From an uncultured archaeon (GTDB lineage: Archaea > Asgardarchaeota > Thorarchaeia > Thorarchaeales > Thorarchaeaceae), in contig CAZPWM010000005.1 in assembly GCA_964590575.1 (NCBI GenBank), forward strand, positions 1 through 63,001: a DNA stretch of 63,001 nucleotides. Reading direction: 5' to 3'. The notes beneath the pieces were generated by a model. It worked only from the letters and a program-made list of their open reading frames with translations, searched no databases and was not told where the DNA came from. A program made the translations under genes and the position numbers. Shown here piece after piece: positions 20,304-46,943 of this stretch. The stretch's first letter is position 1; every line of letters starts with the position of its first letter.

Positions 20304-20614
20304 TGGTTCCGCTCTCATGGTATCTTATTCTTGCCTTTATGCTGATAGGCTTAGGTAGCTATGGGATGATGGTCAAGAGGAACCTCATCCGAATTCTTAT
20401 AGGCGCTGAAATCATGGGGAACGGGGTTAACATCGCTCTTGTAGCCCTTTCACTCTATAGTCCCGCCTTTACATTCACCGGTCAAGGACTGATTATCCTC
20501 GTCATCTCAGTTGCAGCAGCTCATACTGCCTTGGCTCTAGTTTTGATGCTTATGTACAACCGACGTTATGATTCAGTTGACCTTGGACAACCGATCGAAA
20601 TGGAGGCACCATAA
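20303..20614 (+). CDS. nuoK: Complex I subunit K
   Basis: KRNLIRILIGAEIM, VAAAHTAL; three TMs. Confidence 0.9.
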   Translation: MVPLSWYLILAFMLIGLGSYGMMVKRNLIRILIGAEIMGNGVNIALVALSLYSPAFTFTGQGLIILVISVAAAHTALALVLMLMYNRRYDSVDLGQPIEMEAP

Positions 20615-20615
20615 G

Positions 20616-21119
20616 ATGTCTACAATCGGAAGAGCGGTTATCAACAAGATACCCGAGGTGACATCGAATCCCCTAGGTGATAACAAGATTGAGCTTGTTG
20701 TTCCCAAAGACAAGATTCGAGATGTTGTCAGGATAATAGATGAGGAACTCCCAGATGCGATGCCGGAGTCAGTTTTTGGAATAGACCTCGAGAATGATCA
20801 ATACGAGCTCATCTACATCTTCTGGTCATATACTAATCGTACATTGGTCCAACTCCGAGTTTCCCTCGCTGGCGAAACTCCTGAAATTGAGAGTACATGC
20901 GATATCTTCCCTGGTCTGGAATGGCATGAGAGAGAGGCCCGAGAGATGTTTGGCATCGAGTTCAAGAATCATCCTGATCCACGACTCTTCCTACTGCCCG
21001 ATGAGTTGGATGGAGCATACCCACTCCGCAAGAGATTCCAGACTGACCAAAGCAGATTGAATGAAACTGGTATCACTCCGCCAAAACCACGACCCAAAGA
21101 GGGAGGTGAAGACAAGTGA
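20616..21119 (+). CDS. nuoC: Complex I subunit C
   Basis: WHEREAREMFGIEFKNHPDPRLFLLP...YPLRK. ATG 20616 directly follows the nuoK stop (track 20568). Confidence 0.92.
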   Translation: MSTIGRAVINKIPEVTSNPLGDNKIELVVPKDKIRDVVRIIDEELPDAMPESVFGIDLENDQYELIYIFWSYTNRTLVQLRVSLAGETPEIESTCDIFPGLEWHEREAREMFGIEFKNHPDPRLFLLPDELDGAYPLRKRFQTDQSRLNETGITPPKPRPKEGGEDK

Positions 21120-22252: not shown

Positions 22253-22263
22253 TGGGAGGTGTC

Positions 22264-23403: not shown

Positions 23404-23406
23404 ACG

Positions 23407-23838
23407 ATGGGTTTCTTCAGTGTATTAGGTGATTGCTTCCAGATTTTGAAACATACATTCAGACAGGTCTTCAAGAGACCCTTCACATACTTCTTCCCAT
23501 TCGAAGATAGAATCTATCCTGAAAGGACAAGGGGTAGACATATTCATGTGCGTCAGAATTGTACAGCCTGTGCACAGTGTGTCCGCGCATGTCCAGTGGT
23601 AGCGATCCGTATGGACAAGGAAGATAAGATGTACGAGAAAGACTGTGCTCTGACCTTTGACTACACACGCTGTATCTTCTGTGGTCTATGTGTTGAGGCT
23701 TGTAGATTCGAAGCTCTATTCCACACTCCTGTTGTTGACCTGAGTGAAGGTGACCGGGAAGACCTCATCTACGGTCCTGACAAAATTGAAACCCTTGATA
23801 GAGACCCGTTAAAGTGGCGCGGAAGGAGGTTCCGTTAG
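23407..23838 (+). CDS. nuoI: Complex I subunit I (2x[4Fe-4S])
   Basis: PERTRGRH, CTACAQCVRACP, CIFCGLCVEAC. Confidence 0.93.
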   Translation: MGFFSVLGDCFQILKHTFRQVFKRPFTYFFPFEDRIYPERTRGRHIHVRQNCTACAQCVRACPVVAIRMDKEDKMYEKDCALTFDYTRCIFCGLCVEACRFEALFHTPVVDLSEGDREDLIYGPDKIETLDRDPLKWRGRRFR

Positions 23839-25371
23839 ATGCAGATCACAAACCTCCCGTTTGCTGCCCTATCATTAGCAGTGCTCTTCTTTGGAGCACT
23901 CATGATCTATGTGTTCAAAGACAGTCTTCAGAAATCTGCAGGAAGAGTTGCAGTTGGAATTTCAGGTGTAGCGTCCCTATTGATGGTCTATCCTTTCTTT
24001 CAAGTATTCAACGGGTCTACATACGAAGAGTATGCGACCTGGTCCAGCCTTCTCGAGCAATTCGGTCTAAGGCTTGATGGAATTGCCTTTCCAATCACAT
24101 TTGCAGTTGTCGTGTTAGGTTTTCTATCAGTTGTTTACGCTATTGGTTATACAGAGCATAGTGAGAATAAACCAACCTTCTTCGCTAACACACTCTTCTT
24201 CCTAATGGGAATGCAATGGGTTACCTTAGCAACGAACCTGATCGAATTTTTCATAGCTTGGGAGCTCATGTTGGTTCCCGCTTATTTCCTGATTCTATTC
24301 TGGGGACTACCTGATACTCGAAAGCGAACAGCTATGAAGTTCTGGCTCTACACTCAATCTGGTGCAGTCTGTATCTTGGTTGGCTTTGGAATTCTATATT
24401 CCCTTACAGGGTCATTCGACTTAGCCTTAATTCAACCCGGGATTGACTCACTTGCTCTCGGCGCAATACTACCCGGTCTTGGTATCACTGTTGGCACGAT
24501 ATTAAAATTAGTCTTCATTCTCCTTGCCGCAGGATTCCTTGTGAAGATGGCTGTCTTCCCCATTCATTGGTGGCTCCCACCGGTTCATGCTGAGGCTCCT
24601 ACTCCTATCTCTGTCTTGCTTTCAGGTGCAATGATTGAGACCGGTGCCTACGCGTTGGTGCGGTTTGGATCTCTTACCTTGATAGATGCTGCAATTCAAC
24701 TATCGTTCTTTGTTGCAGCCTTGGGAGTCATCACCATGTTTTATGGTGGTTTCATGGCTCTTGCACAGATTGACATCAAGAGGCTCCTTGCATATTCATC
24801 GGTATCTCAGATGGGATACGTACTGTTTGCCTTGGGTGTGTACTCACCCATGGGTGCTGCAGGTGGAATGTTCCATTTGATCAATCATGCTTTCTCAAAG
24901 GGTCTGTTGTTTATGACCGCAGGTGCTGTGATCCATCAGACTGGCCTACGTGACATAACTAAGATGGGCGGTCTCTCGAACAAGATGCCAATCACAGCTT
25001 TTGCTGCTGCTATTGGAATGATGAGCATTGCAGGAAGTCCTCCTCTCTCTGGATTCGCAAGTGAGTGGATGATGTTCCTCGGAGGGTTCGAGCGAGCGGT
25101 CGTAGGTGGTGCAATAGCAAGTCTACCATTCCTTATTCTAACTATCATAGCAGCATCAAGTTCAATTCTCAGCGCAGGTTATATGATGCGCTTTTTCTGG
25201 AAGGTCTTCCTTGGCCCTCATCCAGATGAGTTGGAAGATGTGAAAGAGAGTTCCAACTCTATGACCATCCCTATGATCATACTTGGAATCCTCATTGTAA
25301 TCTTTGGAATATTCCCAGGACTGGCACTGGATGTCATTGTCCCGGCGGTTCAAGGAATCGTTGCTCCCTGA
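23839..25371 (+). CDS. Additional antiporter-like subunit (NuoM/HyfB/MrpD-like)
   Basis: FFIAWELM, VKMAVFPIHWWLPPVHAEAPT, KRLLAYSS, NHAFSKGLLF, GFASEW. Confidence 0.88.
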   Translation: MQITNLPFAALSLAVLFFGALMIYVFKDSLQKSAGRVAVGISGVASLLMVYPFFQVFNGSTYEEYATWSSLLEQFGLRLDGIAFPITFAVVVLGFLSVVYAIGYTEHSENKPTFFANTLFFLMGMQWVTLATNLIEFFIAWELMLVPAYFLILFWGLPDTRKRTAMKFWLYTQSGAVCILVGFGILYSLTGSFDLALIQPGIDSLALGAILPGLGITVGTILKLVFILLAAGFLVKMAVFPIHWWLPPVHAEAPTPISVLLSGAMIETGAYALVRFGSLTLIDAAIQLSFFVAALGVITMFYGGFMALAQIDIKRLLAYSSVSQMGYVLFALGVYSPMGAAGGMFHLINHAFSKGLLFMTAGAVIHQTGLRDITKMGGLSNKMPITAFAAAIGMMSIAGSPPLSGFASEWMMFLGGFERAVVGGAIASLPFLILTIIAASSSILSAGYMMRFFWKVFLGPHPDELEDVKESSNSMTIPMIILGILIVIFGIFPGLALDVIVPAVQGIVAP

Positions 25372-25381
25372 GGTGATTTAG

Positions 25382-27637
25382 ATGCTGTTCGGTCTACCTT
25401 ACTATCTAATCCTCGTCATCCCCTTGGCTGGTTCACTGCTAGTCCCAGTTGTTGGACGCTACAGTGAGAAGCTCAGGGACTGGACACCTGCAATCTTCAT
25501 GGGCATCGCTATGGTCCTCTGTTGGTCTCTTCTCCTAGAGATTGATCATGCCACTCAGCCTACTAGCTGGGTATGGATAGAGGCACTAGGAATAGAGTTC
25601 AGTGTTCTACTTGACCCACTGTCTGTCATAATGGCTGTTCTAGCAAGCACACTTTGTTTCCTCATCTATGTATACAGCACGGAATACATTGCTGATGATG
25701 AAGACCGCAATCGGTTCTTCTTCCTGATGCTCGCTTTTGGTGGTGGCATGCTTACACTCGTGTTGAGCAACAACTTGTTAATCGGGTTTATTGGATGGGA
25801 AATCATGGGCTTCTGCTCCTATGGCCTCATTGGCTTCTGGAACGACAAGAGGAATCCTCCTGAGGAGGACCCAACTGGCTATGAGCAGAACAATCCATTG
25901 CTCCAGTTCGAGACCGAAGGCGCATACAACAGCTACTGTGGAACAAAAGCCTTCATCGTCACACGGATTGGTGACGCCTTCATGCTGGGTGGCATCCTTC
26001 TCCTCTTCATGTTCACGGGCTCCTTCCTGTTCACAGACATGGCTGATCCTGTACATTTGTCGAACAACTGGTGGGAGAACATGGCATCCGTAGGGATTCT
26101 GATTCCTGCACTGCTCCTCATCTTCATGGGTGCCATCGGAAAATCCGGTCAAGCTCCCCTACAGGTGTGGCTTCCTGAAGCCATGGCAGGTCCGACTCCG
26201 GTTTCGGCTTTGATTCACGCTGCAACCATGGTGAAGGCAGGTGTTTACATCACCGCCCGATTCTTAATCACAATAGTAAGTGCGTCAGGCATCCACGCAG
26301 AGATTGGACCAGGTCCTCCAAGCTTCACATCAGCTCAAATCTTTGGCTTTGAGGCTGCGCTGACCTTCTTCATCATCGTGGCTATTATTGGTGGAATTAC
26401 TGCTATTATGACTGCAACAATGGGAATGGTTTCCAATGAGTTGAAACAGATTCTAGCATTCTCGACGCTGTCGCAGCTTGGATACATGATTCTAGCACTG
26501 GGAGTTGGAGGAGTTCTCCAAGCAAATCACCTTCACTATGACCAGGCGTATCTGAGTGGTGTCTTACACGTTGTATCACATGGAGCCTTCAAAGCACTCC
26601 TGTTTCTTGCCTCCGGTGGTGTGATACATGCACTGCATACGAAGTACATCTCAAAGATGGGCGGACTCCGGAAACATATGCGGAAGACGTTCATTGTCAT
26701 GTGGATAGGCGTCTTGGCCTTAGCAGGCATCCCACCCTTCTCAGGCTTCTGGTCAAAAGACTCAATCATTGAGTACACCTATGAACTTGCTGCACACTGG
26801 ACAAATCCAATTGGATGGATTCTATTCATCTTTGCAATTCTAGCAGCAGCCTGCACCATATTCTACAGCTTCAGATTGATGGGCATCACATTCTATGGAC
26901 CCCCACAGGGTGAATCTCATGACTCTCATGAAACTCACGAGGATGAAACTGAGTCTCACGCTGAGGAAGAACATCACGATGACCATCATCAGACACCACA
27001 CGATCCTGGTCCAGCTATGATGGTGCCGCTCTACATACTCGCTGCATTCACGGTCATTGCTTTTGCTGTGTTTCCAATCCTTCAGAACATTGTACTGAAT
27101 GAGAGCAATACATGGATAGAGACCATGACTGAAATGATCGTGGTCAAACTCACTATGCCTGGACTTGTTCCCTTCGTTATCACTTTGGGCGCTCTGGCTA
27201 TTGGTGGGATTCCGGGTTACATCATTTACATCAAGAATTCTAACAAACCAAACACAATCATTGGTGAGAAAGGCTTCAGTCGCAAGATCTACACTTTCCT
27301 CAGACACAGGTGGTACATCAACGAAGGATATCATTGGATTCTTGGAAAATTCCTCAACTTTGCTGCCATGTGGCGAGTCCGAGTGGATGACAAAATCATT
27401 GATGGCATTGACTTCAAGTCTGCTGATGCAGCGATAACCATCTCCACAAAGGTTCGCTGGTTTGATGACAATGTTGTCGATGGGTTTGCTGAGAGCATCT
27501 CAACCCAGAGTGTCAAAGCCTCAGAAACCAGCTTAGCTGAGACGCAGACAGGACGAATCAATGACTACGTTAGCGTGGTGATATTCGGTATAGGAATACT
27601 GGTTATCCTCGCACTGGTTTCATTGGGAGTGATATAG
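25382..27637 (+). CDS. nuoL: Complex I subunit L
   Basis: GWEIMG..SYGLIGFW, KAFIVTRIGD, KSGQAPLQVWLPEAMAGPTPVSALIHAATMVKAGVY, HGAFKALLFL, GFWSKD; lateral helix ending QTGRINDY. Confidence 0.95.
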   Translation: MLFGLPYYLILVIPLAGSLLVPVVGRYSEKLRDWTPAIFMGIAMVLCWSLLLEIDHATQPTSWVWIEALGIEFSVLLDPLSVIMAVLASTLCFLIYVYSTEYIADDEDRNRFFFLMLAFGGGMLTLVLSNNLLIGFIGWEIMGFCSYGLIGFWNDKRNPPEEDPTGYEQNNPLLQFETEGAYNSYCGTKAFIVTRIGDAFMLGGILLLFMFTGSFLFTDMADPVHLSNNWWENMASVGILIPALLLIFMGAIGKSGQAPLQVWLPEAMAGPTPVSALIHAATMVKAGVYITARFLITIVSASGIHAEIGPGPPSFTSAQIFGFEAALTFFIIVAIIGGITAIMTATMGMVSNELKQILAFSTLSQLGYMILALGVGGVLQANHLHYDQAYLSGVLHVVSHGAFKALLFLASGGVIHALHTKYISKMGGLRKHMRKTFIVMWIGVLALAGIPPFSGFWSKDSIIEYTYELAAHWTNPIGWILFIFAILAAACTIFYSFRLMGITFYGPPQGESHDSHETHEDETESHAEEEHHDDHHQTPHDPGPAMMVPLYILAAFTVIAFAVFPILQNIVLNESNTWIETMTEMIVVKLTMPGLVPFVITLGALAIGGIPGYIIYIKNSNKPNTIIGEKGFSRKIYTFLRHRWYINEGYHWILGKFLNFAAMWRVRVDDKIIDGIDFKSADAAITISTKVRWFDDNVVDGFAESISTQSVKASETSLAETQTGRINDYVSVVIFGIGILVILALVSLGVI

Positions 27638-27638
27638 A

Positions 27639-29243
27639 ATGCAATTAGACTTCGCCTTAAACATCCTGAACTCATTACCCTTTGGACCGCTAGGGTTCAT
27701 GCTGATCTTACCACTAGCTGCTGCATTAATAGCATACTTTGCAGGAAAAGGAGCCAGAGCTATAACACTACTAGTCACTGCTGTTGAACTTGGACTATCA
27801 CTCCTGTTGGTTCTAGCGGTTGACACAAGTGAGATTCTTGCTACAGACTCAGTTGCTGGTATGCAGTTTGTCGAATACTTTGTTATGGGAACGATTCCTG
27901 TTGGAGCCACTGATACAGTGTTCCAGTTTATCCTTGGAGTTGACGGACTCTCTGCAATAATGCTTCTACTCTCGAACCTCGTTGTGTTCATTGCAGCAAT
28001 CAGCTCAAACCACATTCACAAGTCTGAAGGTTTCTACTACTCACTCTTCATGCTTCTACAGGTAGGTCTCATGGGCGTGTTCATGTCCATGGATTTGATC
28101 GGATTTTTCATTTTCTGGGAACTGGTTCTCATCCCGATGTTCTTCATCATCGGAAGATGGGGCGAGGAGGGCTGTCAGCATGCGGCTGTGAAGTTCTTTA
28201 TCTATACCCATCTTGGCTCAGCAGTGATGCTGGTCGCATTCTTCATGATGTACCTCATCGCGGGAGATGCAACTGGCACATATACGTTCGCTATGATTGG
28301 CGCTGATGGACTGAGAAGCACTCTTCCAACACTTGCTCCAATGATTCAGATTGGTTTTGCACTAGCCATATTCATGGGTGCCGGAGTCAAGCTACCTGTC
28401 TGGCCGCTACACAACTGGCTTCCATGGGCGCACGTCAAAGCTCCCACGCCTGGTTCAGTCATACTTGCTGGCATCCTTCTGAAGATGGGCGGTTACACAT
28501 TTATCCGTCTTGGGCTCTGGTTGGTGCCAAGTGCATTTGCACGATTGAGCATCCCGTTTGCAGCATTAGCCATCTTCACCTGTATTTATGCTGCATTCAC
28601 AGCAATGGCTCAGACAGATTTGAAGAGCCTCGTCGCATATACCTCAATCAATCACATGTCCTGGGTACTTCTTGGTGTAGCTGTAGCAGCATTTGGTATT
28701 GGTCTCGATCCACTTGTCGCAGCTAATGTGGCTTACATCAATGCAGCAAACTTGGCACTTCAAGGAGCGATATTCATGATGTTCAGTCATGGAACTATCA
28801 TCTCTGTGATGTTTATCATGGCTGGTCAACTCAAGTACTCAGCTGGCACGCGTGAGATTCCTGATATTAAAGGTCTCATGACTAAAGCGCCGCGTCTCTC
28901 AGCAATCTTGATACTTGCCGCCTTTGCGGCCTTTGGTCTGCCGGGATTCAGCGGCTTCATAGCAGAAGCACTGGTCATCTTTGGGTCCGTTGTAATCTAC
29001 CTCTGGGCTGCAATCATCACATTTGGAATATTCATAACAGTGGGCTATGTCCTATGGATGTTGAACCGAATTGTGTTCAGCGACCCTGACCCCGAGAAGG
29101 AAGTTTCAGAGGCACCTTGGACTGACCTCATCGCACCTATTCTGATGATGATACCAGTCATCCTCTTGGGTATATGGCCTGACCTTGTCCTTAACTTCAC
29201 ACAAGCAGTCGTCACTTTCATCATTGGAGGTGTTGCACCATGA
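27639..29243 (+). CDS. nuoM: Complex I subunit M
   Basis: GVDGLS, FWELVLIPM, KFFIYT, VKLPVWPLHNWLPWAHVKAPT, LAGILLKMGGY, SHG, GFIAE. Confidence 0.94.
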   Translation: MQLDFALNILNSLPFGPLGFMLILPLAAALIAYFAGKGARAITLLVTAVELGLSLLLVLAVDTSEILATDSVAGMQFVEYFVMGTIPVGATDTVFQFILGVDGLSAIMLLLSNLVVFIAAISSNHIHKSEGFYYSLFMLLQVGLMGVFMSMDLIGFFIFWELVLIPMFFIIGRWGEEGCQHAAVKFFIYTHLGSAVMLVAFFMMYLIAGDATGTYTFAMIGADGLRSTLPTLAPMIQIGFALAIFMGAGVKLPVWPLHNWLPWAHVKAPTPGSVILAGILLKMGGYTFIRLGLWLVPSAFARLSIPFAALAIFTCIYAAFTAMAQTDLKSLVAYTSINHMSWVLLGVAVAAFGIGLDPLVAANVAYINAANLALQGAIFMMFSHGTIISVMFIMAGQLKYSAGTREIPDIKGLMTKAPRLSAILILAAFAAFGLPGFSGFIAEALVIFGSVVIYLWAAIITFGIFITVGYVLWMLNRIVFSDPDPEKEVSEAPWTDLIAPILMMIPVILLGIWPDLVLNFTQAVVTFIIGGVAP

Positions 29244-30778
29244 TGCTACAACTAGACCTTATTGCAGATTCAATCCGTGGGATTCTTTCCCCTATTACCA
29301 ATTGGTTACTGACAATCATACCCGCAGGGTGGATCATGTCATTGCCTGCTCTAACATTGATTGTCTTCGCTATATTGGCACTTGCAGTAGGTCTCAAGTA
29401 CAACCCACTTGGTCTAAGCTTTATCGGTCTCATAATTGCTGGTCTTGAGATGTTGATGTTTGAACCCGCAGTTCTTGGGGCAGAATCTTTCGGAGGTCAG
29501 TTTGTAAGAGACCCTATGGCTGACTTCTTCATCTACATCATTCTCATAGTCGGCTTTCTAGTCTTGATGTCTTCTACTCTATATGGCGGGGATAAAGGTC
29601 CATACAACTTCCTGCTGCTAATTTCCTTTTCAGGAGCAATCTGGGTTGTAATGGCGACCGACTTGGTTGGACTGTTCTTGGCTTGGGAGATGATGTCAAC
29701 ACCGACATACATACTTGTTGCCCTTGGCCCTGCCCGAGAGGCAATTGATGGTGCAACGAAGTACTTCGTCATGGGCCTTCTTGCTACTATGTTGATGTTG
29801 TTTGGAATTGCCCTTGTATACGGTGTTACTGGAACAACTGACCTTGTCCTCGTGGCATCTGCAGTAGAGGGCATCTGGGGTATGTTCGCTACAACTCCAA
29901 ACGCTGCCTATACAATCCTTCTAGCTTTGGTGTTATTCATTGTTTCATTCGGATTTAAGGTAGGTGTGTTCCCTGGATGGCAATGGGTGCCAGATGCATA
30001 TGCCAGTGCAGATGGAAGCGTCACTGCATATCTTGCAGGCGGATCCAAGAAGACAGGTGTGGGTGCTCTTATGAGAATCCTCGTCATTGGGTTCGTAGTA
30101 GCTCAGACTCAATGGGTGTTTCTCATCGTTGGAGTCGCAATCCTCACCATGATTATTGGAAATGTTCTAGCTCTCGCACAGAAGGATATCATGAGGATGT
30201 TGGCATATAGTAGCATTGCTATGATGGGCTATCTCTTCATTGGAATTGCCTCTGCCATGAATCCCGTCGATACTGCAAGTATTGCTGCATATAATCTGGG
30301 CGTTGGTGCAGCACTTTTCCATGCTTTCACACACGCATTGATGAAGACATCTGCATTCATTCTGGTGTGGGCGCTTTCAATCAAGCTCGCAAAACGGATA
30401 ACGTACGATGATCTAGCTGGGCTAAGCAAACGTGCACCCTTTGCTGCGGGTATGCTGACTATTCTAATGCTATCATTAGCTGGTATGCCACTCACGGTTG
30501 GGTTCTGGTCAAAACTGATTCTCTTCCAGAGTGCAGTCGTTGCTGGAATGTGGTGGCTCGCACTCATAGGTCTCTTGAACTCGGTGTTTTCACTCGGTTA
30601 CTATTTGCGTGTGTTAAGATACTCCTACATGATGGATGCTCCAGATGATTCAAGAATCAAACTGCCAACTATTCCCTTTGTTGCAGTTACAATCTGTGTC
30701 ATCGCAGTGATTGCCCTCTTCCTCTTTCCAAATATTATACTAGACTATGCATTCGCAGCTGTACCCGCAGTACCATAG
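29240..30778 (+). CDS. nuoN: Complex I subunit N
   Basis: WEMMS, KYFVMG, FKVGVFP..WVPDAY, SKK, RMLAYSSI, LAGMPLTVGFWSK, YYLRV. Confidence 0.93.
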   Translation: MMLQLDLIADSIRGILSPITNWLLTIIPAGWIMSLPALTLIVFAILALAVGLKYNPLGLSFIGLIIAGLEMLMFEPAVLGAESFGGQFVRDPMADFFIYIILIVGFLVLMSSTLYGGDKGPYNFLLLISFSGAIWVVMATDLVGLFLAWEMMSTPTYILVALGPAREAIDGATKYFVMGLLATMLMLFGIALVYGVTGTTDLVLVASAVEGIWGMFATTPNAAYTILLALVLFIVSFGFKVGVFPGWQWVPDAYASADGSVTAYLAGGSKKTGVGALMRILVIGFVVAQTQWVFLIVGVAILTMIIGNVLALAQKDIMRMLAYSSIAMMGYLFIGIASAMNPVDTASIAAYNLGVGAALFHAFTHALMKTSAFILVWALSIKLAKRITYDDLAGLSKRAPFAAGMLTILMLSLAGMPLTVGFWSKLILFQSAVVAGMWWLALIGLLNSVFSLGYYLRVLRYSYMMDAPDDSRIKLPTIPFVAVTICVIAVIALFLFPNIILDYAFAAVPAVP

Positions 30779-30803: not shown

Positions 30804-31361
30804 CTATTTCTTACGGCTAAGTCGTCCTTCTTCTTTTTTAATAGCAGTTTCTACACACTTGGTGAACATCTCTTCGATATTCTCTCCTGTTTTTGCAGAG
30901 GTCTCAATGTAGTCTATATTTAGCCATCGACTGACCATTTCCCCTGCCTCCTGAGGGACTACACGATCCTCCCTATCCACCTTGTTTGCAACCAGAATAA
31001 TAACTGCATCGGGAGAGACCTTTATGAAATTGTCATACCATGAAGCCACGTTCAGAAAAGTCGGAGGTCTAGTCACGTCATACACAAGAAATGCAATTGA
31101 TGCCCCTACCATGTATCTTGAACGAAGGTCTTTGTAGGTGGGTTGTCCTGCTAGATCCCAGAGAACAACTTGTGCTATCGAATGTTCGCCCGGTCGAAGC
31201 TCAATCTCGACGTTCTTCAGAGCTATGCTTGTACCAATTGTTGCCTTATACGTTTCTCCGTAACTGTTCTGAGTGTACCGCATGATGCAGCTTGTTTTAC
31301 CTACGGCCCCATCACCAAGTGCTACCATTTTAAGCACATATCTGGGACCTTCTTCTTCCAC
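30804..31361 (-). CDS. Rab-like small GTPase (Ras superfamily)
   Basis: G1 GDGAVGKT, G2 YKATIG, G3 WDLAGQ, G4 NKVD, G5 ETSAK; no terminal Cys. Confidence 0.93.
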   Translation of the reverse strand: MEEEGPRYVLKMVALGDGAVGKTSCIMRYTQNSYGETYKATIGTSIALKNVEIELRPGEHSIAQVVLWDLAGQPTYKDLRSRYMVGASIAFLVYDVTRPPTFLNVASWYDNFIKVSPDAVIILVANKVDREDRVVPQEAGEMVSRWLNIDYIETSAKTGENIEEMFTKCVETAIKKEEGRLSRKK

Positions 31362-31442: not shown

Positions 31443-33401
31443 CTAGCAGCCGTTGGGCAGTTTCAGAACAAATCGCGTACCCTTGGTGAAATCTCCTTCT
31501 ACACGATTCTCAACCCAAATATCACCTGAGTATATGTCAACAATCTGCTTGACCAAAGTGAGCCCTACTCCAGAGACCCTATGGACCCTGTCATCAATTC
31601 CTGTAAGGAGGCTTTTCTTTAGTCGGTCATCGATTCCTTGGCCCCAGTCTTCAAAATCAAACTGTATGAATGCCCCCTCCTCTACAAGGCTAGTGTTGAC
31701 ATTTACACGTATATCATCACTACTAGAGAATTTCACAGCATTATGAAGTAGATTGTAAAAAACGTCTTGCAGGAATTCATTGGACATTATGCAATATACT
31801 CCACTTTCCAAGTTTGTTGTAATTGTGATTTTTCTATGAGGAAATGATTGCTTAACAGTCTGGATAGCATCTATCAATGCATTTGCGGGGTCAGTCTTTT
31901 TAAGTGCAAATTTCTTCTGATTCACCACTGAGAACTTCTTCACATTGTGAATGAGAGACACGCTTCGATTGACCTGAAATAGCGCATTCTGCGCTATTTC
32001 TTTAAGATGCTCAGGAAAATTCTCATCCTCAAGTAGCAACTCAAGGCTCGACATTATTCCTTGGTGAAGATTATTGATATCGTGTGCCATCAAATCTGAC
32101 ATCCAAATCGCACGAGCTCTAGCTTCTTCACGTTGTTTCTCAGCTTCCACCTGCTCAGTGATATCAATGGAGAATCCCCCAATCAAAGGTGAACTCCCTT
32201 CTTTGATAATGGGAAACTTGTGAGTTCGAAATGTCCGTTGCTTTCCATCCTGAATTGTTTCCTGTATTCTGTCAACTGGACCTTCTTTCAATACTCTCTT
32301 GTCTTCTTCCGTCAACTCTGTCGCGCGCTCACTCTCGAAAAGATCAAAATTTGTTAGACCCTCCCAATTTTCACGATTCTGCTCTGGTGCCTGGCCACGC
32401 ATGCATCTATTTACGAATAGCACTTTTGATGTTTCATCCTTGATGTATACTGGACCTGGCATATTATCAGCAAATGCTGTGAAGCGTTCTTGGAACTCCT
32501 GAAGTTCTTGTTGAGTTCTTCTACGTTCTAGAACAGTGGCGAACATGCTTGCGATTGTTGCAAAGACAGTCCTCTGATCTTCTTGAAGTTGTTTTGATTT
32601 CTTGGCTGCAATGTTTATCACACCGAGAAGGTTATCCTTTGAACCTATGATTGGCCAGAATATAAGAGTATGAATACCTAACTCTCTTGCCCTCTTCATT
32701 CTGTCCTTACTTTCAGGTGATTTGTCTATGTCTTCAGTGAAAAGTGGCGACATTGTTCGACCAGTCCTTGCAACGAGGAAATTGGGATCATCAAGGTGAA
32801 CACCCTCTGGTGTGCCTCCCTTCTCAATCCCGACAAACGCCATCAAATCGAGTGAGTTTGTTGAGGAATTATATAATCGGATTGTACCAAGGTCGAATCC
32901 AAGTGTTTCGATAAGTCCAGAGAGTACTTGATTACACAAGGATGGAATCTCCTCAGTGCTAATTGCAGCCTCTGCTATGACGCTGTATGCGTGTCGTTCA
33001 GTAGCAAGTGTTTCTTTGGAAAGTTCATCGCTTGTGACATCGATAGAGTAGGCAATTACATACTTTTCATTTTCGACCACTATTGAATTGGCTGTCACCT
33101 CAAGAAAACGTCTTTCGCTTTTTGCATTAATGAATTGATAACGTGCTTGATCTTTTTCTCTCCTTCCAGAGCTAAGTGCTAACAATCTAGTTAGAGCTAA
33201 CTCTTGATCGTCGGGACCTAGGACCGTCGCTATATTAGCTACTTTTTTGCCGACAACTTGTTCCGGTTCGAATCCCAATCCAGCGGCCATTATTGGGTTA
33301 ATATACACTATCTTCTCATCATGAATGACAATAACTCCCTGTGGTGAGGAATCAAATAGTGTATGCAGAAGCGTATCTCGAGAACCTTCCAATTGAGTCA
33401 C
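31443..33401 (-). CDS. Soluble PAS-GAF-PAS sensor histidine kinase
   Basis: PAS (IVYINP..DVT), GAF (LLGVINI), PAS (DIT), H-box AHDINN, N-box NLLHNAVKF, DWGQGI, SGVGL. Confidence 0.9.
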   Translation of the reverse strand: MTQLEGSRDTLLHTLFDSSPQGVIVIHDEKIVYINPIMAAGLGFEPEQVVGKKVANIATVLGPDDQELALTRLLALSSGRREKDQARYQFINAKSERRFLEVTANSIVVENEKYVIAYSIDVTSDELSKETLATERHAYSVIAEAAISTEEIPSLCNQVLSGLIETLGFDLGTIRLYNSSTNSLDLMAFVGIEKGGTPEGVHLDDPNFLVARTGRTMSPLFTEDIDKSPESKDRMKRARELGIHTLIFWPIIGSKDNLLGVINIAAKKSKQLQEDQRTVFATIASMFATVLERRRTQQELQEFQERFTAFADNMPGPVYIKDETSKVLFVNRCMRGQAPEQNRENWEGLTNFDLFESERATELTEEDKRVLKEGPVDRIQETIQDGKQRTFRTHKFPIIKEGSSPLIGGFSIDITEQVEAEKQREEARARAIWMSDLMAHDINNLHQGIMSSLELLLEDENFPEHLKEIAQNALFQVNRSVSLIHNVKKFSVVNQKKFALKKTDPANALIDAIQTVKQSFPHRKITITTNLESGVYCIMSNEFLQDVFYNLLHNAVKFSSSDDIRVNVNTSLVEEGAFIQFDFEDWGQGIDDRLKKSLLTGIDDRVHRVSGVGLTLVKQIVDIYSGDIWVENRVEGDFTKGTRFVLKLPNGC

Positions 33402-39756: not shown

Positions 39757-41334
39757 ATGCGTCACTCACCGTCACGCCTATTATTCATAGGTTTCATAGC
39801 TTTGTTCCTTGTAACGATGGCTGGAAGCATCACCACAGCTGATGCTCAAACCACTGACCCGATTACAGATGGTAAACTGTCTGTACTCATTACTCTGGAC
39901 GGACTGAATTTCTTCGATTATAATGTAACAAATCCGCTACCACTGAACATGGATGAAGCAATGTATCTAGATATGGAACTCGCGAATATATGGACTCAGG
40001 ATCTCAACATGAGTGGGTCTATCACTTTTTGGTATCAAGGATTTGCATTGTTCCCTATCCAAATAAAGGATAATCACAACAACAGTTGGTTCAATATTCC
40101 AGCCAACTCTTCAAGTTCCCTACCCGAACCTGTTGAAATGGATTTCTCAGTGATGCTGAATGTTCTTGGCCCCATTCATCTCACTACGGGTATTTTCGAA
40201 GCTACTGTTGACTTTCAGTACTATGTTGAGGGGAATGTGAACGTGAACAATTTACAGCACCGATTCTCATTTGAGCTACCATCAACAATATTTGATGTAA
40301 TCACATCTGTTACTGGTATAACAGCTGGAGTTGCCACAGTTGGTGCTGTCTATGGTGCTGCGGCTGGGCTCAACAGTCTTTGGGAAGGTCTCAAGACAGC
40401 ATACAAGCTTAGGGGAATTCACAAGAAAGCATCTGAGATTCGTTCGCTACCAAATCTAACAGTGTTAGGTGCGTTGCCACTTCTCTTCTCATTGCTCGAT
40501 AGTATGAAGAAAGGTACGAAAGAAGGGCGAGAAGACAGTGGTGTCAGTGAGTACATATTGCGACAACGGCTCCGAGAAGTCGCACCAGACGCTTGGCAGG
40601 CAGACAAATGTCCTAAATGTAAGCGTAACTGGAACAAGAAGTTGGATATGTGTAAGAAGTGTAATTTCACACAGGATGATGCTAGAGCTGCTTATGCCGA
40701 TCTCCTCGCTGAAAAAGTTCCCGCTGCTCTTCGATGGATGGGTAAGAAGAAATCAACAGACGTCAAGACTCTGGCAAAGAAGACAAAATCAACTCAATAC
40801 AACGCAGGTGTGATTGCAGCAGCAATGGTTGACACTGAGGTGACTGAAATTACCAAGGTTGGAACCCCACTTCGTTCCTTTGTCATGAACATTGCAGGTT
40901 TAGCCTTTCTCGTAGTGACTTGGCAGCAACTGCTAGGTGATAGTTCAAGTTCTTGGCTGACTACCCTCACACTCATTGGTGCTGCTTTGTCTCTTGCTGT
41001 CATCGTAGCTCTCTATATCAGTAGGAAAACGCAGATTGCGAGATTCGTCGCTGATCAGGAAGAAGGCAAGAAGATGCTTCCAACCAAAGAAGAAGCCGCT
41101 GCTGAATCGGAGTCTAGGCAAGAGGAAGTTGGGGACGAACCGGAAGTGGAAGATAAAGTCGCTGATGAAGTGGTCGATGAGTACGAATCTGAGGTCGCAG
41201 AGGAAGACACTATATCTTCTGATGACATCGAGTCAGAAAAAGATCTTCCCGAAGAGGGACCAGTAGAAACAACTGAGAACTTAGACTCAGATGATGAGAT
41301 TTATGACGAAGACGAACTCTCTGACGACGAGTAG
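39757..41334 (+). CDS. Multi-domain membrane protein (signal peptide, beta-rich ectodomain, Zn ribbon, TMs, acidic tail)
   Basis: N-terminal signal; CPKC-x9-CKKC; two late TMs; Asp/Glu-rich C-terminus. Confidence 0.75.
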   Translation: MRHSPSRLLFIGFIALFLVTMAGSITTADAQTTDPITDGKLSVLITLDGLNFFDYNVTNPLPLNMDEAMYLDMELANIWTQDLNMSGSITFWYQGFALFPIQIKDNHNNSWFNIPANSSSSLPEPVEMDFSVMLNVLGPIHLTTGIFEATVDFQYYVEGNVNVNNLQHRFSFELPSTIFDVITSVTGITAGVATVGAVYGAAAGLNSLWEGLKTAYKLRGIHKKASEIRSLPNLTVLGALPLLFSLLDSMKKGTKEGREDSGVSEYILRQRLREVAPDAWQADKCPKCKRNWNKKLDMCKKCNFTQDDARAAYADLLAEKVPAALRWMGKKKSTDVKTLAKKTKSTQYNAGVIAAAMVDTEVTEITKVGTPLRSFVMNIAGLAFLVVTWQQLLGDSSSSWLTTLTLIGAALSLAVIVALYISRKTQIARFVADQEEGKKMLPTKEEAAAESESRQEEVGDEPEVEDKVADEVVDEYESEVAEEDTISSDDIESEKDLPEEGPVETTENLDSDDEIYDEDELSDDE

Positions 41335-41405: not shown

Positions 41406-44400
41406 TTAAACATCAGTTGGAGCAGCTGGTATTTTCCCTCTCGATATCTTGCTGAATACCTGAATTATCTTTGATGAGATGAAAGGTATCACAACGAGGA
41501 ATGCAACTGGCAAGAGTATTATGACGCCAAGTTCCCAGCTTGCCAAGAAGTCCATGCTCATGACCGTGGTCGCGCCCACAATCACTAAGAACATCAAGAA
41601 CTTGATTCTGATAGATGAGCTGAACCTCCCCACCATTGTTGTCTTCTCATCTTCAACAATACTTGCTGGTGTACCAGCCTCCTCCATCTTTTCGATTTTC
41701 TTGATGCCCTTGCTCACTTCGCGGTAGAGGTTAATTACTACGACTATTATCGATGATATGTATGCTGTGAAGATGGTTGTCATGATTGATGGGATTGCGA
41801 TATCTCCGATTACAAATGACTGGTCTATGATGTACGCCTTGAACCAATCGATTTCCACACCATAGATCAGTATCAAGAATATGACTAATGGTACGAACAC
41901 CAGATGCCACAGTCCCATAATCATTCTTCCTCTTCTGAGTGAACCTCGAACAAGCACAGCATCTGTAGCATCTCGATATAGCCAGAGTCCATATAGAAGC
42001 ACTGAACATCCGAGGAGTGCTACCGTGAGAAGCAGAGCTACTGCATAGTTGCTTGCTGTATACATCAAGTATGATCCAACAAGACCTGCTCCGGCTCCAA
42101 AGACAATCAGAAGATACAATCGGTCCATACTTCTGATTGACTTCTTACGACCATCCAATGACTTGTCTTCAACTCTCATGGAGGATGCCAGTCGAAAGTA
42201 GATGACCATACCAATGAGACTCAGGACAAATGACAATCCGGCTCCAAGTGAAAGTGAGCTCGTTGACATTGCAAAGTTTGGAGTTGCCGGAGCAATCGTT
42301 ATGATTGTATTTGTGTCCACATCCTCTGTTACAAACTCGCCTGTTGCTGACACTGTAAGTATGAACTCTCCATATCCTGCATTTGTTGGTATATGCGGAA
42401 TGGAAACGACATACTCTCCAATCTGTTCAGTTTGATATGCTATCATTGGGGGCATTCCCATGAATTCCATCACTACTTCGAGGTCCGGTACTGGGTTTCC
42501 ATAACCATCTGTCGCAATAATAAACACAGTCAGTTCTTGTCCCTGAATTGGTTTTTCAGGAGAATACGTGACATCGAACGCTATGTTGCCCAGAACAGTC
42601 AGAGTTCCATTGATTGGGTTTCCTGTTTCAACATCTGGATGGACAACGGAAACAATGTACTCATATTCTCCGGGTAACCAACCTACGGTAGATATGTTTC
42701 CCGAATACACTCCTGGACTACTCACCAATAGATTGTAGGAAAGTGCTTTGACAAAGACCGTCACCGTGGCACCAGCCACAGGATTATTATTCCAATCAAC
42801 AAAATGCAGTTCAACTGTTGTCTGGTCACCTTGGATTAGTACCCACCCTGCTGTCGATATCACCTCAGCCGTTGTTGCTGCATCAGAATATGTACGAATC
42901 GAACGAACCCCAAACCATGGGGTTGCGTGTGTTGCATTAACATAGACTGTGAAGGTATCAGGTCCTAATAGAAAATCTGCAATGACCGACAAAGTGATTT
43001 CTGGATCTCCTGAGGCGGTTTGATATGCTGTATAGAGAGTCCCATTGATGTCAACTTGAATCGAGGTCCAGTTGAACACAGGTCCATATTTGTCTTTAAC
43101 AAACACAGTGATATCAAAATTGGCTCCTCCTTCTACTCTCGTTTCATAGAACACATTACATGTGAGGTTTCCGAACAACTCAAAGTTGAACTCAGCAACA
43201 GGTGGTCCTATTATACCCGGTTTCTGCACGACTAATTCGAATATATGAGAACCAATGCCCAAAGTAAGATTGTGAGAAAAGATATAGCTCCCCAAAATTG
43301 AACTCTCGACTAGTTCGAATACTATTGGACCACTTCTGAGAATTACAATAGCCCCTTGGATTGGTTGTCCTAATCCACCTGTGATATTGAACCATGAGGT
43401 GATTAATTCATCCTGTTGTGCAGTAGCTGGGAAATCTGATAAAACCGTGAGTGACGTAGTCAGTATCTGAACATTAATTGTAACCTCTCCAATCCCTATT
43501 CCTGTTGCATAAGCGTGATCTGCAGTGGCTGAAACTATATGAGGTCCCGCATTCAATTGAACTTCTGTAATGACAACAATATAGTTTGAAACCGTGGGCG
43601 TAGCTGCCTGCCCAACTCCGTCAATCATGACTGATACTGTTGCATCTTCAACCGTACCCCCCAGATTATCGAGAACCCAGATTGTAAGGTTCATACTCTC
43701 TCCCTGAGTGACAAGAGCTGGAGCTTGAACTGATATATGGAGATTGCTGATAACAGTCACAGCATCAACAAAGGTCTGATCCAGTGGGTGATAGAATCCA
43801 TTGTTAATCCTGATACTCAAGTTAGCCATACCAATTGGCCATGCTGCTTCTGTACTCCCTTGATATTTCATTGAGAGCCAGTCATAATAGAACCCATATG
43901 TGTTCACTCCTGGACCTTCTGGTGTCATAAAGTGTGCACTCATGTACACACTGGCATCCTCTACGATTTCATCATAAATGTTGGTGACAGTCACATTGGC
44001 AGTGAATGGCTGTCCTTGCTCTACAACCCATGGAGAATAGTCAAAAACCGCGGTCAATCTATAAAACCAATCTAGATCTCGGATGGCACCAATCACTACA
44101 TCTCCAACACCTTGGACTAGTGGATATGCCGCGATTTCTTGTCCCTCTCCTGGATCAACATTGCCAATTGGTATTGGTACATAGACCTCTCCAACTACTG
44201 CGGTCCTGTCAATATCCCCATTTGCTGAAATTGCGGTTAGTCGCCCATCTTCTTTGGTAAATAGAATGAATTCCTCCTCATTATCACCATCGAAATCTGT
44301 GACTAAACCACTGAGCGGGCTTGCATCTGTAACCTGAATTATCCAGTCGACAGATGGTGGGCCATTTACTCGAGCCAACAATAGCTCACCAACCTCGTCC

Positions 44401-46943
44401 AAGACAACAAGCTCGTCAACGCCATCTTGTTCCACGTCAAATGGATGCAGAAAAGATACATCCTTTCCTGCTAAGAAATATGTGTCCATTTCTCCTAGAT
44501 TCTGCACAGAACCATCAAACAAGTATATTCTAGTTTCTGGTGTTGTTCCCGTCCAGAAGGTTAGTCCGAATGCGAATTCTCCACTCTTGGGACCTAGACG
44601 GTCCATTGTATTGATAGTTTTAGCTTCAATCTTTGTGAACCCAGCTCGTGGTATTGCAAATGCACGGTATGCCATAATGTTCGATCCGTCTACAATTTCA
44701 ATGAAAGTATCGCCACGAACAATGGTCAAGTTGTTGGAGGGTGCGTCACTATCAAAGGCTCCAATCATAAACTGTGGTGCTAAATCACTGTCTGTAGAAT
44801 CTGTGAGGATTCTTGCAGTCCATGAACCACTACTATCCATTCTGGCTAATGTGAAATCATCTGTATTCCGAAGCAAATAGACATCATCTTTTCCATCTGC
44901 ATTTCCATCTATGACCTCAACTAGGTTGATATTCTTCATATACACTGGTGATATCTGTGAATGATATAGTGTGAAATCATTTCCATGTAGGACATAGACG
45001 GTAGTAGCGATATCTGCAGTTACAATTGCTATGGGATCAAGGATTGAGTCATCATCAACCATTCCAGAGAGAAGTGCAAAATCATAGAGTGTACCGGTGA
45101 AACTAATATCATACGAGTCCATTAGCGTCCCATCTGCAAAATATTGATTCAATTTCAAAGATTTTCCAGAAGGTCCAATCTCCAAATTGTAAAGGATAGG
45201 ACTTCCATCTGACATGTTACCCAGTGCTAGCAAGCTGTGTGTACCAAACCTGTTGTACGTTTCTGACTTGTCATGCTGCCATGCAAGATGGCCTGTAATA
45301 ACAAACGCTCCCGGATGAGTTTCATTGTTGGCGTACCCGATATTTAGATACACATCTCGGACAGTGATATAATACTCATAGGTTGCTGCTTCAAGACCAA
45401 CTAGAAATGCGAAATACGTATCTCCGCTGTCCGGAGTGAGCAATTCATTATGTGGCTGAGTCCAGAGGAGCGTTCCTTCTTTTCTGATGAAAAGCTCTGC
45501 AGATTCAACTGCGGTTGTTTCGTCAATGAGAATCTTGAAAGTAACGTATTCATCCTCAACAGTTGGATGAAACGGGTCAAGTGGTTCTGGTGTAATAACC
45601 GGCGCCTCTGGCTCTGAGAGAAGTATGTAAAGATCAGAACCATAGTTGATGAAGATGTCATCCATTCCATTTGCATCTAGGTCGTACACTTTTAGAGTGT
45701 CCACATCCTCGATGAATGTTTCTGCATATGCAAGCTCTGCGTTGCGACCATGAATGAAACAAGGATTATCTAAAATGGTCACTAATGCAACATCGGTCAG
45801 TTCATCATTATCAATATGGCCTGTTGCCAGTGCATTTAGGTAAGAATAGACATCGGGTGTTTCCCGAATGATAGTCCCATTACTTCCGTCAATGAACATT
45901 GCTGTATGCAAGGAGGTTGACACTGCTACAATGTCTTCCTGAGAATCTCCAGTGAAATTACCTACTGTGGACTGAATCTGCCCGCCTACTGGACTGATAA
46001 TTGTCTGATAGATTTGAGATAAATCTGAACCATCATACAACGTAATGTGTCCTAAATTATCAGTGACAAAGAAATCAGAGAGTCCTCCCCCATAATCCAT
46101 TTTTTGAATGCCTCTCGTGCTGACTGACATGCTCATGTCTAGAGCAGTTGAGCCATTTCCGTTGAAAACCCAAATATGTACAGGTGCGGTAGTATTTGTC
46201 AAGACAATCTGGTCTGCACTAGGATCTGAGAAACGACCAATAGCATTGTAGTTCCGGAAACTACCATTTTCATCTGCAGTTCCTATAACCAATCCTGTTG
46301 AGAGGTCCAAAGTGATCATCCAATTACCACCATTTACATTGATGGCTGCATCTGGTTGGGTGTCACCATCAAAATCTCCCAAGCCAAGAAGACTCGCACT
46401 TACACCTGGAAAACTCCATTCTGTTAAGGTGTCATTGTTGAAATCCACAATAAACAATTCGACATTTGCGGTATCAGGTCTCTTTAACCCAAGAAATTCA
46501 TCATGCCCATCATCATCAATGTCTGCAACAATCAGAGAACTATAGAGGCCACTCGGGATGGCAGGTCCTACACTTATATTCAGTGTTACGCCACTGAAAG
46601 GATCTGTGAAGAATAGCTTTTCCTCTACAGTATTAACATATGCAAAACCCCGTAATCCATTTGTACTACCTGGGTGAGCTCGATACTCTCCGGATAGCGC
46701 AATATGCAGGAGGTTGTCCGGTCCGCCAACAGCTGGTGTAAGGAAATCAGTTGGTTCATTGATAGACACTGAATTTGTTACAGTAACATCCGCAGATAGT
46801 ACTGGAATTGTCATTAAAAGAACCAACATGACCACTGATAATAATTTGAACAAATCATTACCCAATGTGCCAACATGACGCTCTTTTGGTCTGAATTTAC
46901 TTGCTCTTCTTATAGAATCAATCTCACTCACAGATTTCTTCAT
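41406..46943 (-). CDS. Giant surface protein with FG-GAP/VCBS-like Ca-binding repeats, Ig-like repeats and a seven-TM C-terminal domain
   Basis: Signal-like segment (LLSVVMLVLLMTIPVLSA); repeats DIDDDGHDE, DFDGDTQPD, DLDANGMDD, DGNADGKDD, DVEQDGVDE, DFDGDNEEE; beta-rich repeats with GxPVxxAxV; seven hydrophobic segments at the C-terminus. Confidence 0.85.
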   Translation of the reverse strand: MKKSVSEIDSIRRASKFRPKERHVGTLGNDLFKLLSVVMLVLLMTIPVLSADVTVTNSVSINEPTDFLTPAVGGPDNLLHIALSGEYRAHPGSTNGLRGFAYVNTVEEKLFFTDPFSGVTLNISVGPAIPSGLYSSLIVADIDDDGHDEFLGLKRPDTANVELFIVDFNNDTLTEWSFPGVSASLLGLGDFDGDTQPDAAINVNGGNWMITLDLSTGLVIGTADENGSFRNYNAIGRFSDPSADQIVLTNTTAPVHIWVFNGNGSTALDMSMSVSTRGIQKMDYGGGLSDFFVTDNLGHITLYDGSDLSQIYQTIISPVGGQIQSTVGNFTGDSQEDIVAVSTSLHTAMFIDGSNGTIIRETPDVYSYLNALATGHIDNDELTDVALVTILDNPCFIHGRNAELAYAETFIEDVDTLKVYDLDANGMDDIFINYGSDLYILLSEPEAPVITPEPLDPFHPTVEDEYVTFKILIDETTAVESAELFIRKEGTLLWTQPHNELLTPDSGDTYFAFLVGLEAATYEYYITVRDVYLNIGYANNETHPGAFVITGHLAWQHDKSETYNRFGTHSLLALGNMSDGSPILYNLEIGPSGKSLKLNQYFADGTLMDSYDISFTGTLYDFALLSGMVDDDSILDPIAIVTADIATTVYVLHGNDFTLYHSQISPVYMKNINLVEVIDGNADGKDDVYLLRNTDDFTLARMDSSGSWTARILTDSTDSDLAPQFMIGAFDSDAPSNNLTIVRGDTFIEIVDGSNIMAYRAFAIPRAGFTKIEAKTINTMDRLGPKSGEFAFGLTFWTGTTPETRIYLFDGSVQNLGEMDTYFLAGKDVSFLHPFDVEQDGVDELVVLDEVGELLLARVNGPPSVDWIIQVTDASPLSGLVTDFDGDNEEEFILFTKEDGRLTAISANGDIDRTAVVGEVYVPIPIGNVDPGEGQEIAAYPLVQGVGDVVIGAIRDLDWFYRLTAVFDYSPWVVEQGQPFTANVTVTNIYDEIVEDASVYMSAHFMTPEGPGVNTYGFYYDWLSMKYQGSTEAAWPIGMANLSIRINNGFYHPLDQTFVDAVTVISNLHISVQAPALVTQGESMNLTIWVLDNLGGTVEDATVSVMIDGVGQAATPTVSNYIVVITEVQLNAGPHIVSATADHAYATGIGIGEVTINVQILTTSLTVLSDFPATAQQDELITSWFNITGGLGQPIQGAIVILRSGPIVFELVESSILGSYIFSHNLTLGIGSHIFELVVQKPGIIGPPVAEFNFELFGNLTCNVFYETRVEGGANFDITVFVKDKYGPVFNWTSIQVDINGTLYTAYQTASGDPEITLSVIADFLLGPDTFTVYVNATHATPWFGVRSIRTYSDAATTAEVISTAGWVLIQGDQTTVELHFVDWNNNPVAGATVTVFVKALSYNLLVSSPGVYSGNISTVGWLPGEYEYIVSVVHPDVETGNPINGTLTVLGNIAFDVTYSPEKPIQGQELTVFIIATDGYGNPVPDLEVVMEFMGMPPMIAYQTEQIGEYVVSIPHIPTNAGYGEFILTVSATGEFVTEDVDTNTIITIAPATPNFAMSTSSLSLGAGLSFVLSLIGMVIYFRLASSMRVEDKSLDGRKKSIRSMDRLYLLIVFGAGAGLVGSYLMYTASNYAVALLLTVALLGCSVLLYGLWLYRDATDAVLVRGSLRRGRMIMGLWHLVFVPLVIFLILIYGVEIDWFKAYIIDQSFVIGDIAIPSIMTTIFTAYISSIIVVVINLYREVSKGIKKIEKMEEAGTPASIVEDEKTTMVGRFSSSIRIKFLMFLVIVGATTVMSMDFLASWELGVIILLPVAFLVVIPFISSKIIQVFSKISRGKIPAAPTDV

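Follow-up and report, generated by a model that had tools for sequence, protein, structure and literature searches.

A giant predicted surface protein of thorarchaeal genomes with an adhesion-type ectodomain on an undescribed seven-helix membrane domain

Large adhesive ectodomains carried by seven membrane helices are familiar from the adhesion G protein-coupled receptors (GPCRs; class B2), in which a 7tm_2 domain is combined with GAIN/GPS and the GPS cleavage motif, consisting of His-Leu/Thr with conserved Cys pairs, lies within the GAIN domain, immediately ahead of the first membrane helix. Among prokaryotic proteins, bacterial 7TMR-DISM receptors join an extracellular sensor region (DISMED ectodomains) to a seven-helix module (7TMR-DISM_7TM) with kinase, cyclase or GGDEF outputs in the cytoplasm, and microbial rhodopsins carry their retinal-binding lysine in the middle of the seventh transmembrane helix (TM7). 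Integrin alpha subunits, which pair with a beta subunit, place a seven-bladed propeller of the FG-GAP type and immunoglobulin (Ig)-like "leg" domains on a single membrane helix, while archaeal surface-layer and other surface glycoproteins are acidic, sequon-rich and rich in Ig-like domains, with a C-terminal membrane anchor formed by a single helix or a lipid. Integrin-type FG-GAP propellers are documented in bacteria as well, according to the available part of the corresponding study (Chouhan et al., 2011; PMC3192720). Here we describe P0001, an open reading frame (ORF) of 1845 amino acids (aa) that begins with ATG and is free of internal stop codons, located at 41406..46943 on the reverse strand of a 63,001-nucleotide (nt) stretch (positions 1 to 63,001 of contig CAZPWM010000005.1, assembly GCA_964590575.1; hereafter the window) from an uncultured archaeon of the Thorarchaeaceae (Asgardarchaeota).

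P0001 has an N-out/C-in seven-helix topology, and its layout is analogous to that of adhesion receptors, although it is very probably not a GPCR homolog. We favor, at somewhat below even odds (roughly 45%), the reading that P0001 is an adhesion or contact protein which couples its ectodomain to a conserved cytoplasmic surface, its seven-helix (7TM) domain being more than an anchor; this reading draws on sequence comparison and on AlphaFold2 (AF2) models. A Kyte-Doolittle hydropathy scan (19-aa window) revealed a single N-terminal hydrophobic segment (aa ~34-52, with the hydropathy peak spanning aa 24-57), which with the preceding basic n-region marks a putative signal peptide or N-terminal signal anchor (aa 1-54; 46782..46943, reverse strand, as are all segments of P0001 given below); the N-terminal "FRP" motif is kept in the consensus. 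At the other end of the protein, the scan delimited seven segments at aa ~1562-1585, 1609-1628, 1632-1656, 1674-1696, 1715-1740, 1779-1800 and 1803-1826 (nt ~41466-42260). They lie within the 7TM domain (aa 1556-1830; 41454..42278), defined by hydropathy, the AF2 model and conservation among homologs, and are followed by a short basic cytoplasmic tail (aa 1831-1845 plus the stop codon; 41406..41453). Over 35 full-length homologs, the mean number of lysines and arginines was 6.5 in the TM1-2 loop, 4.8 in TM3-4, 7.2 in TM5-6 and 3.7 in the tail, as compared with 0.1 before TM1, 0.0 in TM2-3, 1.1 in TM4-5 and 0.1 in TM6-7, a charge pattern which places the large N-terminal part outside and the C-terminus inside the cell. 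The longest cytoplasmic loop is TM5-6, with 38 aa. A preliminary description of this gene, made from the sequence alone, had proposed a signal-like N-terminus, seven hydrophobic segments at these positions and an N-out/C-in orientation with the TM5-TM6 loop as the longest, all of which the hydropathy profile, the seven AF2 helices and the loop charges bear out; the helix count came out at seven, and no transporter fold was matched. Since the seven helices form the best-conserved part of a family with members in 88 of the 400 genomes searched for the phylum, their occurrence is far beyond chance.

A word-indexed search returned 54 relatives besides the query at E ≤ 1e-3. Full-length relatives comprise 1800-1900 aa and share 29-79% identity overall, and the named ones come from metagenome-assembled genomes (MAGs) of Thorarchaeota, Promethearchaeota and Sifarchaeia. 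When the 7TM part by itself served as phmmer query in an exhaustive search of 1.84 billion cluster representatives, 130 clusters were retrieved at E ≤ 1e-3, of which 69 remained at ≤ 1e-10 and 43 at ≤ 1e-30. The domain is C-terminal in nearly all long matches (proteins of 1400-2500 aa); short matches mostly begin inside it and look like fragments. Among 25 members scanned for domains, FG-GAP/Ig ectodomains dominate the nearer ones, BNR_2 propellers occur in six, and a C-terminal cytoplasmic double zinc ribbon (DZR) follows the 7TM domain in seven (four of them above the Pfam cut-off). The names of distant members point to Sigynarchaeota, Helarchaeota and Promethearchaeota, and proteins that combine BNR, 7TM and zinc ribbon are present in Hel/Loki-like MAGs. 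With a single query and E ≤ 1e-5, the domain was found in the 88 of 400 genomes mentioned above and in 56 of the 85 genomes of the archaeon's own family, and all 40 confirmed loci, located in species-representative genomes, belong to MAGs titled Thorarchaeota, Promethearchaeota, "uncultured archaeon" or "archaeon". On these sequence data, the 7TM family appears restricted to Asgard archaea. One member, P0080 (FG-GAP_3, Big_1 and 7TM; 1451 aa), is labeled as a Latescibacterota bacterium and lies on a 4.4-kb contig, being either misbinned or a rare non-Asgard member.

The genome that encodes P0001 also holds a paralog with an open frame of 2514 aa, the 7TM domain of which is 46% identical (locus L002, G000:C35:10461-11324, reverse strand). 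The longer type has orthologs (L031, L039) in other gene surroundings, for instance with an ORF containing a VWA domain downstream in L031. Two distant members encoded on a single Promethearchaeota contig of 225 kb, P0116 (1508 aa) and P0169 (1725 aa, ending in a double zinc ribbon), have successive accession numbers and are thus tandem paralogs. A full-text literature search found no description of the family, although the supplements of a preprint (10.64898/2026.10.28.762692) might list related clusters; the available parts of PMC13466386 and PMC12993045 contain nothing on it.

Conservation is distributed unevenly along the protein. Mean identity to P0001 is 70.7% in the 7TM domain, 52.0% in the stalk, 47.0% in the beta-sandwich, 40.8% in propeller 2, 38.6% in propeller 1 and 34.7% in the tail; judged by these alignments, the 7TM part is the best-conserved and presumably the slowest-evolving region of the protein. 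The same order, with the membrane part more conserved than the ectodomain, is seen in adhesion GPCRs. The juxtamembrane proline at the end of the stalk, P1555, is invariant in 35 of 35 close homologs and in all 34 of the more distant sequences compared (<36% identity). Besides P1555, these 34 sequences keep W1700 in an extracellular loop, P1718, F1785 and P1812 completely or nearly so, followed by G1790, G1695, G1806, K1781, D1658 and Y1740; the most conserved segments family-wide are the TM4-5 extracellular loop and TM6. Within the Thor clade, invariant residues are concentrated where TM3 (YGLWLYRDA), TM4 (R...GLWH..VP), TM5 (YRE) and TM6 (SSxRxKF) reach the cytoplasm, and in the TM5-6 hairpin (TP, E1766). 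We infer that W1700 and P1718 belong to a kept extracellular hairpin and that P1812, G1790 and F1785 are helix-kink residues, whereas D1658, Y1740-R1741 and K1781 probably form a polar cluster kept family-wide at the cytoplasmic face; the Thor-clade motifs that hold these residues are YGLWLYRDA, GLWH, YRE and SSxRxKF. A 7TM domain that evolves most slowly, is reused under FG-GAP/Ig or BNR ectodomains and keeps its hairpin, kink and polar residues would be more than an anchor.

The ectodomain was modeled with AF2 over aa 55-1000 (model m30a866363b36; mean predicted local distance difference test score, pLDDT, 88.6; predicted template modeling score, pTM, 0.65). The model consists of two all-beta domains of 32 strands each, equivalent to eight four-stranded blades: a first beta-propeller of the FG-GAP type (aa ~71-448; 45600..46733) and a second one (aa ~550-960; 44064..45296; model residues 496-906). 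Between them lies a seven-stranded beta-sandwich (aa ~449-549; 45297..45599), assigned from the secondary structure of model residues 395-496, and a putative Ig-like stalk (aa ~961-1555; 42279..44063) leads from the second propeller to the membrane. Strict Dx[DN]xDG-type loops occur at aa 141 and 421 in propeller 1 and at aa 679 and 836 in propeller 2, and a Pfam match to FG-GAP_3 at aa 679-733 scored 19.9 bits, below threshold. All Pfam matches in the stalk, namely Big_1 (aa 1373-1398), DUF7382 and A2M, were likewise sub-threshold, and an NCBIfam search with the whole protein found no match. Relatives exceed the cut-off for FG-GAP_3, FG-GAP, Big_1 and Invasin_D3, the FG-GAP_3 scores reaching 46.4 bits in P0053, 43.9 in P0061 and 40.7 in P0080; in the scan of relatives for FG-GAP_3 and Big_1, P0077 scored 69.3 bits, also above the cut-off. 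The two blocks of DxDxDG-type repeats listed in the preliminary description are thus present and fold, in the model, as two propellers, each with eight blades in place of the seven it had suggested. The Ig-like repeats it named stand in the relatives, many of which have Big_1 and Invasin_D3 matches and some of which exceed the cut-off; within P0001 itself they do not rise above sub-threshold matches.

In structural comparison with VIA-align, both propellers matched WD40, BamB and PQQ-type propellers with Z-scores of 24-26 and a root-mean-square deviation (rmsd) of 3.1-3.6 Å, the best match of propeller 2 reaching a Z-score of up to 24.8, while integrin alpha5 matched propeller 1 and the following sandwich at 18.4. 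Foldseek with the whole ectodomain model retrieved only multi-propeller proteins (DDB1, CPSF160, EMC1) at a TM-score of about 0.2; these matches reflect the presence of two propellers and nothing more specific. P0001 resembles integrin alpha in that Dx[DN]xDG loops mark its FG-GAP-type propeller region and Ig-like domains come after it, but differs in its two propellers of eight predicted blades each, their better match to WD40, BamB and PQQ propellers and its seven membrane helices in place of one; no beta subunit is known for P0001, and no search for one was made. As an analogy of layout, the earlier comparison to an integrin-alpha ectodomain set on an adhesion-GPCR membrane part holds. All 21 N-x-S/T sequons fall within aa 55-1555, compared with 12.1 ± 3.3 in shuffled sequences, and the ectodomain is acidic, with 197 aspartates and glutamates versus 51 lysines and arginines. 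Taken with the model, these features describe P0001 as a giant acidic surface protein predicted to comprise two eight-bladed, Ca-loop FG-GAP-type propellers, a sandwich and an Ig-like stalk.

Such an ectodomain would also suit a main building block of the Thorarchaeota cell coat, for which the 7TM domain would serve as a sturdy, possibly oligomerizing anchor, with no part in signaling. Such a structural role in the envelope, and nothing beyond it, ranks first among the rival explanations, although we regard it as unlikely. It accords with the acidic, sequon-enriched composition of Ca-loop propellers and Ig-like modules, with the presence of the 7TM domain in 56 of 85 family genomes, with the conserved housekeeping synteny in which the P0001-type gene lies and with the lack of a cytoplasmic output domain; P0001 is also comparable to archaeal surface glycoproteins in composition. 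The part of PMC9834061 available describes a cultured Lokiarchaeon whose surface bears many complex proteins in place of an ordered S-layer, and gives no lattice as known for Asgard archaea. However, a single helix would be enough as an anchor, and the anchor of P0001 is a conserved seven-helix domain, unlike the single helix or lipid of those glycoproteins. This domain clearly exceeds the exposed part in conservation, keeps its polar cytoplasmic and extracellular-hairpin residues under different ectodomains and is, in some relatives, extended by a cytoplasmic double zinc ribbon.

The 7TM domain was modeled separately (aa 1540-1845; alignment of 60 rows; mean pLDDT 88.9, pTM 0.82). The AF2 model shows seven long helices at the positions given by hydropathy and a small beta-hairpin between TM4 and TM5 on the extracellular side. 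The helices comprise 29-37 residues and, toward the cytoplasm, reach beyond their hydrophobic stretches, which suggests, as far as the model goes, a helical platform beneath the membrane. No Pfam or NCBIfam family matched the module at E ≤ 1, a sequence search of the PDB gave 0 matches at E ≤ 10, the ESM Atlas offered no usable neighbor, and Foldseek with the model against the PDB found no match at E ≤ 1e-3. VIA-align, run on 48,161 representatives and then on Foldseek's top 989 chains, placed designed or natural four-helix bundles first, matching model residues ~93-259 (TM3-TM6) with Z-scores of 10.4-10.7 and an rmsd of 2.4-3.4 Å over 137-153 residues, values which, according to the notes of the method, are common among unrelated helical proteins. 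The signatures of Rhomboid, CPBP, archaeosortase and PQ-loop-type proteins, compared by eye with the conserved residues, did not fit. The seven-helix module is thus a previously undescribed family without a convincing known fold.

The similarity of this module to described seven-helix proteins appears confined to architecture. P0001 shares with adhesion GPCRs the long modular adhesive ectodomain placed before seven helices and the N-out/C-in orientation, and GPCR chains occur among the low-ranking Foldseek and VIA-align rows. The Foldseek rows, however, have E-values of 0.36-1.4 and TM-scores of 0.14-0.27, and the VIA-align rows for GPCRs and rhodopsins have Z-scores of 6.8-7.7 with an rmsd of 12-16 Å over about 220-240 residues, so that the model bears no convincing resemblance to GPCRs or rhodopsins and the GPCR-like fold first envisaged finds no backing, in keeping with the caution, rightly voiced at the time, that homology was not established. 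Neither 7tm_1, 7tm_2, 7tm_3 nor GPS or GAIN was listed by hmmscan at E ≤ 1, and the membrane-proximal module of P0001 is Ig-like, unlike GAIN. That the family is a genuine, if very distant, homolog of eukaryotic adhesion or class C GPCRs, as an Asgard forerunner of 7TM receptors, is accordingly highly improbable and already close to refuted; the available part of the 2026 preprint cited above mentions Asgard "7TM proteins" and an Asgard-eukaryote "class C GPCR" structural cluster, with no details tying either to this family (10.64898/2026.10.28.762692). Microbial rhodopsins differ as well: the only lysine near TM7 of P0001, K1825, is located at the cytoplasmic end, and there is no Pfam match to Bac_rhodopsin. 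P0001 resembles bacterial 7TMR-DISM receptors in being a prokaryotic extracellular region joined to a seven-helix module, but no corresponding Pfam match was found at E ≤ 1, the tails in the family are short, acidic or zinc-ribbon only, and the P0001 ectodomain is five to ten times larger than theirs.

Seven helices could also act, alone or as an oligomer, as a conduit or a device for handling lipids, with the ectodomain feeding or gating it. The helices may be mobile, as TM4, TM5, TM6 and TM7 contain conserved prolines and glycines, and TM3-TM6 weakly match the four-helix membrane bundles of pentameric channels, with Z-scores of 8.0-8.4 that nevertheless lie within the range of unrelated helical bundles. 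A transport or channel function is improbable given that the membrane helices contain few charged residues, that no transporter family was matched in Pfam or NCBIfam and that a carrier-type internal repeat was not detectable in the 7TM domain (hhalign probability 1.9-7%).

Two short motifs in P0001 had been read as further hints of receptor function, and neither is a family trait. The C-terminal TDV, taken for a class I PDZ ligand, is present, but S/T-x-V ends only four of 35 homologs (TDV twice, TEV, SDV), and other clades end in acidic tails of 20-100 aa. The segment "ATPNFAM" just before TM1, likened to the GPS motif through its "NFA", is conserved only at P1555: among 35 homologs, the N position holds asparagine in 12 and aspartate in 19, the F position phenylalanine in 19 and isoleucine in 13, and the A position alanine in 13. 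Unlike adhesion GPCRs, P0001 has neither His nor Cys in front of TM1, and no Pfam match to GPS or GAIN was obtained, which counts further against GPCR homology. The genome encodes two tandem ORFs with Arrestin_N domains above the Pfam cut-off (frames of 286 and 304 aa; G000:C43:14760-16042, reverse strand) and an ORF with PDZ_2, all on other contigs, and nothing links them to the 7TM gene.

According to the reading of P0001 as an adhesion or contact protein, the ectodomain would engage a partner cell, a matrix or a mineral surface. Through the conserved proline, the extracellular hairpin and the kinked helix bundle, this engagement would reach a docking platform conserved on the cytoplasmic side, to which distant members would add the double zinc ribbon. 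Several points weigh against it. P0001 has no cytoplasmic output domain or partner, its tail amounting to about 20 aa; fusion to a zinc ribbon is confined to distant members (22-28% identity), and such ribbons abound throughout the archaea. Housekeeping genes surround the gene, with neighbors that are convergent and divergent and no operonic signaling partner. A polytopic anchor could be just as strongly conserved because of membrane packing, oligomerization or lattice formation, and the description of the helix bundle derives from secondary structure and the residue spans of fold matches. The Latescibacterota label, together with most of the 130 clusters having no name, leaves strict restriction to Asgard archaea unproven. 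A bolder version, which we put forward as doubtful, is that the family represents an independently evolved Asgard class of adhesion-type heptahelical receptors, with an interchangeable giant ectodomain (FG-GAP/Ig or BNR) and a new fold, in which contact with other cells or with surfaces is relayed to the cytoplasmic platform, represented in some lineages by a fused double zinc ribbon; if true, it would be a prokaryotic analog of integrin and adhesion-GPCR outside-in signaling in the lineage closest to eukaryotes.

The 7TM gene is flanked by a divergent gene for a pyridine-nucleotide disulfide oxidoreductase and by a convergent gene (39757..41334, forward strand) for a 525-aa membrane protein without a Pfam family. 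In this protein, a signal peptide and a small ectodomain precede a TM helix, followed by a highly conserved cytoplasmic part that contains a CxxC...CxxC zinc ribbon; a TM hairpin and an acidic tail come last. Its gene adjoins the 7TM gene in 29 of 41 loci searched and, by eye comparison, in about 31 genomes; nevertheless, the whole block is syntenic across loci, the neighbor is present in 83 of 85 family genomes versus 56 for the 7TM domain, and in one genome (G320) it stands directly beside the oxidoreductase gene with no 7TM gene between them. The adjacency is therefore not taken as evidence of a functional link. A complex prediction for the 7TM domain and aa 175-430 of the neighbor scored 0.00 against a mark of 0.32, which speaks neither for nor against binding. 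Most family genomes also hold a paralog of the neighbor, of ~410-445 aa and about 30% identity (G000:C15:3775-4425 in the genome studied here). In G320, an apparent fusion to an N-terminal ArsR-type helix-turn-helix domain in a 1478-aa frame (locus L044, 7213-11649, reverse strand) proved to be an artefact, since the frame reads through a sequence gap filled with N.

Otherwise the window holds unremarkable chromosomal genes, among them MutS/MutL, pentose-phosphate enzymes and isoprenoid genes. A complex-I-like operon (19189-30778, forward strand) encodes Oxidored_q4, q3, 30 kDa, 49 kDa, NADHdh and four Proton_antipo_M proteins, and upstream of it a 646-aa ORF (15951-17891) fuses FAD_binding_4/FAD-oxidase_C to Oxidored_q6. 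A Ras-family small GTPase ORF (30804-31361, reverse strand; Ras 145 bits, Roc 90 bits) immediately adjoins a gene for a cytoplasmic PAS/GAF histidine kinase (31443-33401, reverse strand).

Models of eukaryote origin lean on close contact between an Asgard host and its partner, and yet the surface molecules of Asgard archaea are almost unknown. The family described here, large and conserved, is widespread in one Asgard family and scattered over the phylum, and it sets adhesion modules on a membrane domain for which no described counterpart was found. If the 7TM domain serves only as an anchor, P0001 is still likely to be a major envelope component with a new membrane fold. If it transmits information or force, the family would represent a new kind of prokaryotic receptor and would provide a handle on the contact biology of Asgard archaea.

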